Assembly (NCBI GenBank): GCA_946402735.1
Contig: CAMIXH010000002.1
Coordinates: 29,080-93,079 of the forward strand
Origin: an uncultured Mycoplasmatota bacterium
GTDB taxonomy: Bacteria > Bacillota_I > Bacilli_A > RF39 > UBA660
Reading direction: 5' to 3'
DNA length: 64,000 nt
The notes beneath the pieces are model-generated. The model searched no databases. It saw nothing but the letters and a program-made list of their open reading frames with translations, and was not told the origin of the DNA. Numbering within the stretch: position 1 is the first letter of the stretch; the number at the start of each line of letters is the position of its first letter. This document shows, piece by piece, positions 32,293 through 33,596 of this stretch. The position numbers and the translations under genes were made by a program.

Positions 32293-33210
32293 TTAATAAA
32301 TTACTTTTCCACCAAATCCACTTAATACTTTATTATGACTTGTATAAACTAATTGTGTTACTTGTTTATCACAATCTTCACACTCTTTTACCATTCTAGC
32401 ATAAAATTCAACTAACTTAGCTTGATCTGTTAAATATAAACCATCTACACATTCACAATAACCTTTAGAATAAAAATGGTGTGATAAGAAAAAGTTCTTA
32501 TCTAAATTATTAAATATTTCATTGAAATTAATAAATCTATCTCTTGCAAATTCATTACATTTCATTAAAGAAACAAAACCATCTTTATATATTCCAAGTC
32601 TTCCAACATAATTAAGCATAGCTTTTATTTCTTTTAATGAATCAATATAACCTTTCATTACAAGAGTATTAATATTAATTATTTTTTTGTCTTTTAATCC
32701 CTCTTGTACATATATTATATCATCTTCACTAGCAACTTTTCTAGAGTGAAAAATACTTTGATTTATTTCTTCATCATAATGATGTTTTGATAAATGTATA
32801 CTTTCTAAATTATTAACATTATCAAATTCTAGTATTTTTCTAAAATTTAATCCATTTGTTGATAACTGTACTTCTATATTAGGATCTATTCTATATATCA
32901 TCTGTATAATATCATTAACAGTATCTGGATAAACCATTGGTTCTCCACCACTAAGACTTACTCCATGTAATAATCCTTTTTCATATAAATATCTAATTAC
33001 ATATTCTAATTTTATTATATCAATTTTACCATTATCTTTTGAAGATTCATTTACACAAAACTTGCACTTAGCATTACAATCATCTGTTACTTTTACATAT
33101 AATCTAAGTGATGGATTTGCTTTTAGGGGATACTCATCTTTATTAGTAGAACAAAGATAATCCCTCATATTAATATCTTTTCCAAATACATTTTTTATCA
33201 TAATTAACAT
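32293..33210 (-). CDS. Radical SAM enzyme (MoaA/PqqE-type core, short C-terminal Cys cluster), function unknown
   Basis: Has the CNAKCKFC (CxxxCxxC) motif, SLSGGEPMVY, LSTNG and NTLVMKGYID. The C-terminal cysteines read YCEC..(22 aa)..CEDC. There is no full SPASM domain. It overlaps the upstream ORF by 7 nt. Confidence 0.8.
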   Translation of the reverse strand: MLIMIKNVFGKDINMRDYLCSTNKDEYPLKANPSLRLYVKVTDDCNAKCKFCVNESSKDNGKIDIIKLEYVIRYLYEKGLLHGVSLSGGEPMVYPDTVNDIIQMIYRIDPNIEVQLSTNGLNFRKILEFDNVNNLESIHLSKHHYDEEINQSIFHSRKVASEDDIIYVQEGLKDKKIININTLVMKGYIDSLKEIKAMLNYVGRLGIYKDGFVSLMKCNEFARDRFINFNEIFNNLDKNFFLSHHFYSKGYCECVDGLYLTDQAKLVEFYARMVKECEDCDKQVTQLVYTSHNKVLSGFGGKVIY

Positions 33211-33596
33211 CTATTTGTAGCTCTATAACTACATCCACAAGAATCAGTTTGTACTAATGTTCTAGAACTTCCGCATGAACTACTTGATACTTCATGATAA
33301 TGACCATAATGTTTTGGATCAGAGGCAACTTTATTCTTTTTAGCTTTATATATAGCCATTGATTCAACAAAAGCTTCTAAATCTACAAATCCATCATCTT
33401 CTTTAAAATTAGAAATTAATCTAGCATTATTAATAATAACATCTAACCATTTTGATATTTCACTATTTGAACTAATCATTTTAGTATTTACTAAAAAACT
33501 CTTATAATTTAAAACATTCTTTTTTATTTCATTTGAATTTTTAGTTCTGTTTATAATCTCATTTGTAAACATTTTTATTTGTTCTTCTAATTCCAT
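33204..33596 (-). CDS. Hypothetical 130-aa protein with a His/Ser/Cys-rich C-terminus (candidate radical SAM substrate or partner)
   Basis: The N-terminal ~95 aa are helical. The tail reads KHYGHYHEVSSSSCGSSRTLVQTDSCGCSYRATNRC and ends on a Cys. It is coupled to nadR (2-nt gap upstream) and to the radical SAM gene (overlap). Confidence 0.6.
   Translation of the reverse strand: MELEEQIKMFTNEIINRTKNSNEIKKNVLNYKSFLVNTKMISSNSEISKWLDVIINNARLISNFKEDDGFVDLEAFVESMAIYKAKKNKVASDPKHYGHYHEVSSSSCGSSRTLVQTDSCGCSYRATNRC

Follow-up and report, generated by a model that had tools for sequence, protein, structure and literature searches.

A radical S-adenosylmethionine enzyme and a Cys-terminal partner protein accompany pnuC-nadR in several bacterial classes and jumbo phages

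In the 64,000-nucleotide (nt) stretch of DNA from an uncultured Mycoplasmatota bacterium analyzed here (contig CAMIXH010000002.1; hereafter the window), an enzyme of the radical S-adenosylmethionine (SAM) type and a 130-amino acid (aa) protein ending in Cys are encoded side by side in a nicotinamide adenine dinucleotide (NAD) salvage operon. We find that this pair is a conserved, uncharacterized two-gene system, which goes along with pnuC-nadR not only in several bacterial classes but also in jumbo phages. An uncharacterized two-gene system had been suggested by the original prediction, which was made from the sequence of the window, and in profile searches with the pair nothing beyond the generic Radical_SAM and Fer4_12 domains reached a cut-off. 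To our knowledge, NAD salvage is regarded as fully mapped and no radical SAM step is recognized in it. The depletion and rebuilding of NAD are a central theme of the conflict between phages and bacteria (NARP1, NARP2 and NARP3). A radical SAM enzyme with a Cys-terminal partner is wired into the nicotinamide riboside (NR) branch not only in uncultured gut Bacilli, where it is part of the NAD operon, but also in many Clostridia from rumen and gut and in jumbo phages, and its conservation as an add-on to phage PnuC-NadR suggests an unrecognized requirement or trick for NAD rebuilding in anaerobes.

On balance, we lean towards the reading that the pair is a dedicated enzyme-scaffold system, which would work at the terminal Cys of the partner and be accessory to NR-based NAD maintenance by PnuC-NadR. 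If this is confirmed, the pair would add a reaction to those known for radical SAM enzymes and introduce a novel type of carrier or scaffold protein. The system is compact, with two genes, or four together with pnuC-nadR.

Conservation of the pair and its link to NAD genes

At least 292 close homologues of the enzyme are present in metagenomes, and an exhaustive profile search for the wider family of ~300-aa radical SAM proteins gave 140 representatives at E <= 1e-30. Since the family-wide alignment was too diverse for the retrieval of loci, it was split into subgroups. The locus counts cover 149 distinct enzyme loci, and the "distant cellular" group excludes the Bacteroidales type described below. 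In 18 GTDB species representatives, as well as in other contigs, the gene of the enzyme follows nadR directly within an NAD cluster. The carriers of this window-type locus are all metagenome-assembled genomes (MAGs) of uncultured gut Bacilli or "Tenericutes", for example Ca. Coprovivens and Ca. Faecimonas. In window-type loci, an open reading frame (ORF) of 116-146 aa stops within a few nt of the enzyme start, as was seen in all 21 of the loci that were examined first.

A Cys-terminal small ORF flanks the enzyme gene in 23 of 24 close relatives, 47 of 54 distant cellular relatives (Bacilli/Clostridia) and 16 of 22 viral copies. The background is 22 of the 1285 ORFs in the same loci (1.7 %). 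Thus, the pairing is not due to chance. Both pnuC and nadR were found within 6 kb in 22, 21 and 7 of these three sets of loci, respectively. We infer that the single pnuC-nadR locus of a 2-3 Mb genome would fall into a given 12-kb stretch in well under 1 % of cases. Furthermore, since the association with pnuC-nadR is retained at ~30 % enzyme identity, in varied gene orders and in viruses, it cannot be explained by vertical inheritance of one ancestral operon. The genomic link of the module to PnuC-NadR, NrtR and adenosine diphosphate ribose (ADP-ribose) genes is robust. Neighborhood analysis had been proposed as a check on the original prediction; the two genes co-occur almost always, and they sit with nadR/pnuC across Bacilli, Clostridia and jumbo phages. 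The small ORF, whose loss or disruption in relatives would have spoken against a system, is conserved and in frame.

Full-length relatives of the enzyme are encoded in four uncultured phage genomes of 635-735 kb and in ~25 IMG/VR viral contigs, many of them 150-480 kb long. In LR745206, the gene order is pnuC (PF04973, 163 bits), nadR (with nicotinamide mononucleotide (NMN) adenylyltransferase and kinase domains), an 86-aa ORF ending in ...SSDGCGGGSYRRSSC, and the enzyme. The same pnuC-nadR-small ORF-radical SAM block is present in eight more IMG/VR viral loci (nine in total), many of jumbo-phage size. The PnuC of the phage locus L192 scores 163 bits against PF04973, and the phage NadR has the same domains as the NadR of the window, which has CTP_transf_like and AAA_28 domains. 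In most other viral copies, a Cys-terminal small ORF is directly upstream of the enzyme. One 425,361-bp contig, JBBACR010000001 (L076/L197), is labelled "Candidatus Pacearchaeota archaeon" and matches an IMG/VR viral contig in length and coordinates; it is probably a huge phage that was binned as an archaeon.

By themselves, PnuC and NadR make up a full route of NR salvage. They also constitute NARP3, an experimentally shown phage pathway for rebuilding NAD that was reported in 2026 (PMC13464706). Bona fide genes for both proteins are also present in the window, directly upstream of the pair, and jumbo phages have pnuC-nadR directly followed by the pair. In contrast, NARP3 and classical NR salvage consist of two genes and have no radical SAM step, whereas the window has two more genes, which are inserted between nadR and nrtR and co-inherited. 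No radical SAM partner is mentioned in the NARP3 paper (PMC13464706), in the 2008 paper on the NrtR regulon (PMC2330246) or in the 2022 survey of viral NAD and ADP-ribose systems (PMC9503650), and our literature search found no paper linking a radical SAM enzyme with nadR, pnuC, NrtR or the NARP pathways. The 2008 NrtR paper names "nrtX/nrtY" genes and does not define them (PMC2330246).

The partner of the window ends in KHYGHYHEVSSSSCGSSRTLVQTDSCGCSYRATNRC (...SYRATNRC). Structure prediction gave five confident helices (residues 3-85) and a disordered tail (residues 97-130). The protein belongs to no family in Pfam, NCBIfam, PADLOC or PHROGs and has no match among PDB sequences, and a fold search returned no structural neighbor at E < 1. 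A profile search detected 121 homologous clusters, all without annotation. Among the 120 clusters that were retrieved, 117 end in Cys, and two of the three exceptions are shorter than 100 aa. The tails of window-type partners contain one to four S-Y-S-x-x-C-G units and always finish with ...S-Y-x-x-[R/H/G/S]-C. The alignment of the Clostridia-type partners has only Met1 and the terminal Cys as invariant residues. Window-type and Clostridia-type partners are homologous as judged by profile comparison (hhalign probability 94 %, E = 9e-8, 71 columns). In the phage partners, only the tail design C-G-x7-12-C-COOH is shared with the cellular ones: the N-terminal domains have no detectable homology to the cellular N-terminal domains, and the tail alone aligns with the window type. 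The C-x11-CxC-x7-C spacing, which had been described for the tail, is present in the window. As a recognizable unit it was not supported, since only the terminal Cys is conserved. An HYxHY (HYGHYH) motif was also considered as the functional element and rejected, because it is frequent but missing from many family members.

Three other types of context occur in cells. In Bacilli/Clostridia MAGs (L125-L136 and L145), a small Cys/Ser-rich partner is followed by a HemN-like radical SAM protein and then by the enzyme, and in L127 and L133 this set is inside a pncB-nudix-nadE-nadD...nrtR cluster. An ADP-ribosylglycohydrolase fused to CinA (NMN deamidase-type) is encoded directly after the radical SAM gene in the NAD cluster of L127 (6896-8200). 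In Lachnospiraceae, Butyrivibrio, Eubacterium ruminantium and others, a partner of 87-141 aa has a single Cys and a helical tail ending in ...G-R-C. These Lachnospiraceae-type loci (L149-L188, e.g. L182 4610-12204) add a BspA-type leucine-rich repeat (LRR) protein, a DUF2201 protein with a putative zincin metallopeptidase domain (DUF2201_N) and a von Willebrand factor A (VWA)-like domain, and a MoxR-like AAA+ ATPase; the sets are often upstream of pnuC-nadR-nrtR. Among the cultured carriers are Eubacterium ruminantium FB3002, Butyrivibrio proteoclasticus P6B7 and several Prevotella strains.

The Bacteroidales type consists of a 400-770 aa protein with an "A1S_2505" N-domain, the enzyme and a HemN-like radical SAM protein, which are present in 47, 49 and 45 of 49 loci, respectively. 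The "A1S_2505 phage non-structural" protein of this cassette (L075-L123; L193) sometimes also carries DUF1810, and a true NrtR is next to the Bacteroidales-type relatives in 12 of 47 loci. On the plasmid NZ_CP091789 of Prevotella sp. E2-28 (3997-14818; L193), the cassette is found together with genes for ADP-ribosylglycohydrolase, DUF1810, DUF6717 and LRR proteins. Genes for NrtR, ADP-ribosylglycohydrolase, DUF1810, DUF6717 and LRR proteins are frequent companions of the Bacteroidales cassette, which is an uncharacterized system with an ADP-ribose theme. We considered whether the A1S_2505 N-domain is macro-like; similar-looking motifs are present, but a profile search against PDB sequences was empty.

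The HemN-like protein (under every curated cut-off, with 174 against 380) resembles the HemN-like/STM4012-type enzymes and is paired with the enzyme in distant relatives, namely the Bacteroidales type and L125-L136. In contrast, this second enzyme is absent from the clade of the window. In the 737-aa protein P0249, a HemN-like radical SAM domain (N-terminal 440 aa) is fused to a member of the family (C-terminal 300 aa). This fusion speaks for a joint action of the two enzymes in those subtypes where both are present.

The enzyme and known radical SAM families

The signature of the enzyme over 163 sequences, comprising all subtypes, is C20, C45/C49/C52, GGEP, T118/G120, S141-x-HHY, N219, C252-x-C254, Y259, Y270 and G298. 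Besides the Cys residues of the SAM cluster, exactly three extra Cys are invariant in these sequences, namely C20, C252 and C254. A fourth extra Cys migrates: it is at position 182 in 69 % of the sequences, and it is C218 in the clade of the window. The window enzyme also carries SGGEP, STNG and C277/C280, with a CxC-x22-CxxC spacing. This spacing had been proposed as an auxiliary Fe-S site. The distal CxxC was rejected as a family-wide ligand pair, because a Cys near position 280/283 occurs in only ~31 % of the 163 members; the CxC and the N-terminal Cys20 are the invariant part.

The only Pfam matches of the enzyme are the generic Radical_SAM (PF04055) and Fer4_12 (PF13353) domains. When all subtypes were scanned, the enzyme reached no curated cut-off in NCBIfam, PADLOC or PHROGs, and thus did not score as a member of a characterized housekeeping family. 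The best curated match was MoaA (TIGR02666; 71.5 bits against a cut-off of 284). Viperin (NF038283) gave 44.8 bits against 180, and PADLOC pVip gave a partial match of 51 bits. The glycyl-radical activases were also below their cut-offs (NrdG2, 47.3 against 131; PFLA, 41.6 against 232), and no glycyl-radical protein is encoded in the operon. Further matches far under the cut-off included a W-cofactor maturase, NrdG and HxsC. A sequence search of solved structures gave only generic radical SAM matches for the enzyme. The AlphaFold model (predicted local distance difference test score 82) has a partial triosephosphate isomerase (TIM) barrel, an N-terminal beta-hairpin and a four-stranded C-terminal sheet that bears the CEC motif. 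The Foldseek ranking was MoaA, viperin, GDGT-MAS, SuiB, EpeE, BlsE, NifB and CteB, with generic template modeling (TM) scores of ~0.5-0.6. The fold search does not tell nucleotide substrates from peptide substrates.

MoaA (guanosine triphosphate (GTP) 3',8-cyclase; PDB 1TV7/2FB2) has a similar length, a partial TIM barrel and extra C-terminal Cys residues, and is the closest match by sequence and fold (E = 1e-11, TM ~0.63). In contrast to the window enzyme, which has the CxC, the N-terminal Cys and a Cys-terminal partner, MoaA has a C-terminal three-Cys motif. Molybdenum-cofactor genes (moaB/C/D/E and moeA) are absent from the operon of the window, where only NAD genes and two unassigned ORFs are beside the pair. 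Viperin and pVip, the second-best match by fold and in PADLOC, are radical SAM enzymes that act on small nucleotides in the conflict between viruses and hosts. However, viperin has neither extra conserved Cys residues nor a partner protein, whereas the window enzyme has both.

These matches bear on the main alternative, in which the substrate of the enzyme is a free pyridine nucleoside or nucleotide or a metabolite derived from ADP-ribose, as GTP is for MoaA and cytidine triphosphate for viperin. The small protein would then be a mere helper: an electron or H-atom shuttle that uses its tail thiols, a chaperone or a regulator. Class I ribonucleotide reductase, with its C-terminal dithiol tail, is a model for such a shuttle. 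Besides the ranking of MoaA and viperin, the link to pnuC-nadR, NrtR and ADP-ribosylglycohydrolase and the carriage by phages argue for a direct metabolic role, and many tails have two Cys (C-G-x7-12-C-COOH), which is compatible with a redox pair. However, the MoaA and viperin scores are far below the family cut-offs, and a nucleotide-binding signature was not identified. A dithiol shuttle cannot be general, because the Lachnospiraceae-type partners have a single Cys, and the strictly invariant last residue and the repeats of variable copy number look more like a reaction site. We regard this alternative as unlikely, although it is the strongest competitor of the enzyme-scaffold reading.

Peptide maturases such as the sactipeptide/ranthipeptide synthases CteB and PapB, SuiB and the short two-cluster epimerase YydG/EpeE are similar to the pair in that a small ORF with a Cys-rich repeat tail is adjacent, and the extra Cys of the enzyme might be ligands of an auxiliary cluster. 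Most peptide-modifying radical SAM enzymes have a SPASM domain or a recognition element (RRE) of the kind found for peptides synthesized ribosomally and modified post-translationally (RiPPs). The original prediction had been framed in terms of SPASM/twitch enzymes, and the scans did not bear this out: the SPASM-type NCBIfam models gave less than 35 bits against cut-offs of 340-650, no SPASM/twitch domain was found, and no RRE (PqqD-like) was detected in the Pfam scan. The N-terminal extension of the enzyme is a beta-hairpin of ~35 aa. The pair also differs from the maturases in having a folded domain of 85 aa instead of a short leader, in the invariance of only the last residue, and in its position in primary NAD metabolism.

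An ordinary, bacteriocin-like RiPP cluster that hitch-hikes in the NAD operon has to be weighed here. The enzyme would cross-link the Cys-rich tail, and the product would be unrelated to NAD. Such a layout, with a radical SAM gene beside a small ORF that is rich in Cys/Ser and has variable repeats, is classic for RiPPs, and the putative zincin peptidase domain DUF2201_N is found in Lachnospiraceae-type loci. However, the association with pnuC-nadR recurs at ~30 % enzyme identity in other classes, with other gene orders, and also in phages; the NAD promoter drives the pair, with spacings of 1-3 nt; and the tail is free to vary save for its last residue. An exporter, an immunity gene and a leader peptidase were not found in the operon of the window. 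We give very little credence to a RiPP cluster, which is the least probable of the readings considered. By the profile and context tests, the pair falls outside MoaA, viperin, the SPASM/RRE maturases and the glycyl-radical activases.

Proposed chemistry at the terminal Cys

Small proteins that use a C-terminal residue as the reaction site include MftA of the MftA/MftC system, the pearlin scaffolds (TglA), LysW and ThiS/MoaD. In MftA/MftC, a radical SAM enzyme processes the C-terminal residue towards a redox cofactor. By analogy, the partner may be a scaffold of this kind, with chemistry at a defined C-terminal residue on a flexible tail. The pair differs from these scaffolds in that the partner is Cys-terminal, that there is no sequence relationship, and that no adenylating, ligase or peptidase partner is encoded in the window.

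We infer that the tail brings its terminal Cys into the active site and there, probably, to an auxiliary cluster that has an open coordination site. In the sactisynthase CteB, a substrate Cys binds the auxiliary cluster in this manner. In the enzyme-scaffold reading, the helical domain of the partner would dock on the enzyme, and the flexible tail would lead the C-terminal Cys into the interior of the barrel. There, the thiolate of this Cys, perhaps together with the free carboxylate, would bind the open iron of the auxiliary Fe-S cluster, for which C20, C252, C254 and the fourth Cys that migrates between position 182 and C218 are the candidate ligands. The 5'-deoxyadenosyl radical would start the chemistry at or beside the terminal Cys. 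Two outcomes can be envisaged: the tail may be altered covalently (by a thioether, by decarboxylation or by a Cys-derived group), or a small molecule may be built on the terminal Cys or receive a sulfur or H atom from it. The internal ...S-S-C-G... units of the window-type tails may be extra copies of the same reaction site.

The product would aid the PnuC-NadR route from NR to NMN to NAD, and the pair would be switched on together with PnuC-NadR when NrtR senses ADP-ribose, that is, during NAD consumption. If the product supports this route, it would explain why phages with PnuC-NadR also carry the pair. More tentatively, and with considerable doubt, we propose that the pair may be an enzyme component that is still missing from the NR-based NAD maintenance of strict anaerobes and from a counter-defense of jumbo phages ("NARP3-plus"). 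The enzyme would use the terminal Cys of a possibly consumable scaffold in the synthesis, repair or activation of a pyridine nucleoside or nucleotide, or in the synthesis of a Cys-derived cofactor for that purpose. If so, NAD metabolism would have its first radical SAM reaction, and the partner would represent a new class of carrier proteins with a C-terminal Cys.

Several observations weigh against an enzyme-scaffold system. The nearest relatives of the enzyme by sequence and fold, MoaA and viperin, act on nucleotides, and the RRE and SPASM domains were not found in profile scans of the enzyme. No Cys-terminal ORF was detectable in 7 of 54 distant cellular loci and 6 of 22 viral loci. The terminal-Cys rule is not superfamily-wide, as a minority of the 400-770 aa Bacteroidales partners end in Cys (at least 11 among those listed). 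The operon of the window encodes no protease or exporter, and release of a product is not obviously provided for. Finally, many bacteria and the NARP3 phages have a working PnuC-NadR and no such pair, and NR salvage as such can therefore not require it.

The partner might also serve as a sacrificial sulfur donor. In this alternative, the terminal Cys and the internal ones would give up sulfur and be converted to dehydroalanine, and the enzyme would insert the sulfur into a nicotinate or nicotinamide nucleotide to give a sulfur-containing pyridine cofactor. LarE gives up a Cys sulfur for the nickel-pincer cofactor, which is derived from nicotinic acid adenine dinucleotide (NaAD). That the Cys count differs between tails would be in keeping with a consumable donor, nadD, and hence NaAD, is in the same operon, and MoxR-type AAA+ and VWA-like genes accompany the pair in Lachnospiraceae. 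An architecture of MoxR-type AAA+ plus VWA-like proteins is typical of metal-insertion systems. However, LarA/B/C/E-like genes or metal transporters were seen in no locus, no known cofactor-dependent enzyme co-occurs, and the idea draws largely on analogy with LarE. A sulfur donor seems improbable to us.

Layout and regulation of the operon in the window

The two ORFs are at the positions given in the original prediction, and all the sequence motifs named there (C-x11-CxC-x7-C, CNAKCKFC, SGGEP, STNG and CxC-x22-CxxC) are present in the window. The pair belongs to a 12-gene NAD-salvage operon on the minus strand (31447 to ~40400), in which the intergenic spacings range from -8 to +22 nt. Profile searches gave the gene order pncA, pncB, Nudix, nadE, a 135-aa ORF, nadD, a P-loop kinase-like ORF, pnuC, nadR, the 130-aa ORF, radical SAM and nrtR. 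The spacings around the radical SAM/small-ORF pair are -7 to +3 nt. Given the single perfect promoter, the single terminator and the tight packing of the genes, the pair lies within one NAD-salvage operon. The coordinates are listed in Table 1.

Table 1. Features of the NAD-salvage operon and of the enzyme and partner genes in the window
Feature	Position	Strand	Basis or remark
Operon promoter TTGACA-17-TATAAT	40476..40504	-	12/12 consensus match; ahead of pncA
Operator-like palindrome TGTTA(W)TAACA, overlaps the -10 box	40466..40476	.	motif search and comparison with related loci
Second operator-like palindrome (TTTGTTATTAACAAA), directly upstream of the pncA ribosome-binding site	40423..40433	.	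motif search
pncA, isochorismatase-family nicotinamidase	39824..40393	-	PF00857, 96 bits
pncB, nicotinate phosphoribosyltransferase	38170..39807	-	profile search
Nudix hydrolase	37577..38173	-	profile search
nadE, NAD synthetase	36818..37573	-	PF02540 on the orthologue in L001
Conserved 135-aa ORF, no assigned function	36388..36795	-	between nadE and nadD
nadD, nicotinate mononucleotide adenylyltransferase	35819..36382	-	TIGR00482, 120.6 > 112.45
P-loop kinase-like 181-aa ORF	35277..35822	-	between nadD and pnuC
pnuC, nicotinamide riboside transporter	34612..35280	-	TIGR01528, 141.8 > 42.45
nadR-type bifunctional NMN adenylyltransferase/ribosylnicotinamide kinase, without helix-turn-helix domain	33598..34608	-	NF005988, 216.6 > 201
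Small partner ORF, 130 aa	33204..33596	-	ORF call
Partner five-helix domain, aa 1-85	33342-33596	-	structure prediction
Partner disordered Ser/Cys/Gly-rich tail, aa 97-130	33207-33308	-	structure prediction
Codon of C-terminal Cys130 (TGT, then TAA)	33207..33209	-	sole partner residue invariant in all subtypes
Radical SAM ORF, 305 aa (302 aa if start = M4, 33201)	32293..33210	-	ORF call and family alignment
Invariant N-terminal Cys20	33151..33153	-	99 % conserved
CxxxCxxC (C45, C49, C52; CNAKCKFC), ligands of the SAM-binding [4Fe-4S] cluster	33055..33078	-	100 % conserved
Invariant C252-E-C254 on the C-terminal beta-strand	32449..32457	-	100 % / 99 % conserved
nrtR, Nudix-related ADP-ribose-responsive regulator	31447..32289	-	PF00293 NUDIX and PF21906 NrtR_WHD, 55 bits > 27
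Terminator-like hairpin followed by a T-run, operon end	31441..31456	-	sole minus-strand terminator-like hairpin found, after nrtR

The radical SAM gene and nrtR are 3 nt apart, as had been described, whereas nadR and the small ORF are separated by 1 nt (33597) instead of the predicted 2 nt. The predicted 7-nt overlap of the small ORF and the radical SAM gene is obtained with the first start codon. It depends on the choice of the start: with a start at M4, the two are separated by a 2-nt spacer (TAA-TT-ATG), and most homologues begin at the residue aligning with M4. Under either choice, the small ORF and the radical SAM gene are tightly (translationally) coupled. The start of pncA is likely ATG 40393, because the promoter would fall inside a longer ORF. 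The NrtR of the window scores 152.6 against the NCBIfam equivalog NF050029, which is under the cut-off of 400.

Two near-identical TGTTAWTAACA palindromes flank the -10 box and the first ribosome-binding site. Three sites of this palindrome are present in the window against 0.19 expected, and in 18 related loci it precedes the NAD cluster, frequently in two copies spaced by 40-45 nt. By its position and conservation, the palindrome, whose core is GT-N5-AC, is a candidate NrtR operator. In most lineages, the core of the NrtR operator is GT-N7-AC (PMC2330246). Control of the pair by NrtR is plausible, given nrtR in the operon and the conserved promoter palindromes. An NAD riboswitch was considered as another means of control and rejected, since a scan with the Rfam gathering thresholds yields only tRNAs. 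The third exact copy of the palindrome (TGTTAATAACA) is at 54306-54316, ~90 nt upstream of a 729-aa ORF (52027-54216, minus strand). This ORF has no Pfam match and may be a further member of the same regulon.

Two further ORFs of the operon are conserved in related NAD clusters. Homologues of the 135-aa ORF are at the same position in L001 (39 %) and L004 (28 %), and the ORF has no match in Pfam, NCBIfam or PADLOC. The 181-aa P-loop kinase-like ORF gives weak generic kinase matches only. Its conservation extends to L001 (57 %) and L007 (80 %), and it may encode a nucleoside or nucleotide kinase of the NAD cluster. Elsewhere on the minus strand of the window, 12 tRNA genes are arranged in an array (25649-26718), and a 454-aa ORF (27257-28621) has a repetitive low-complexity sequence in which Pro, Glu, Ala, Thr and Val are extremely abundant.

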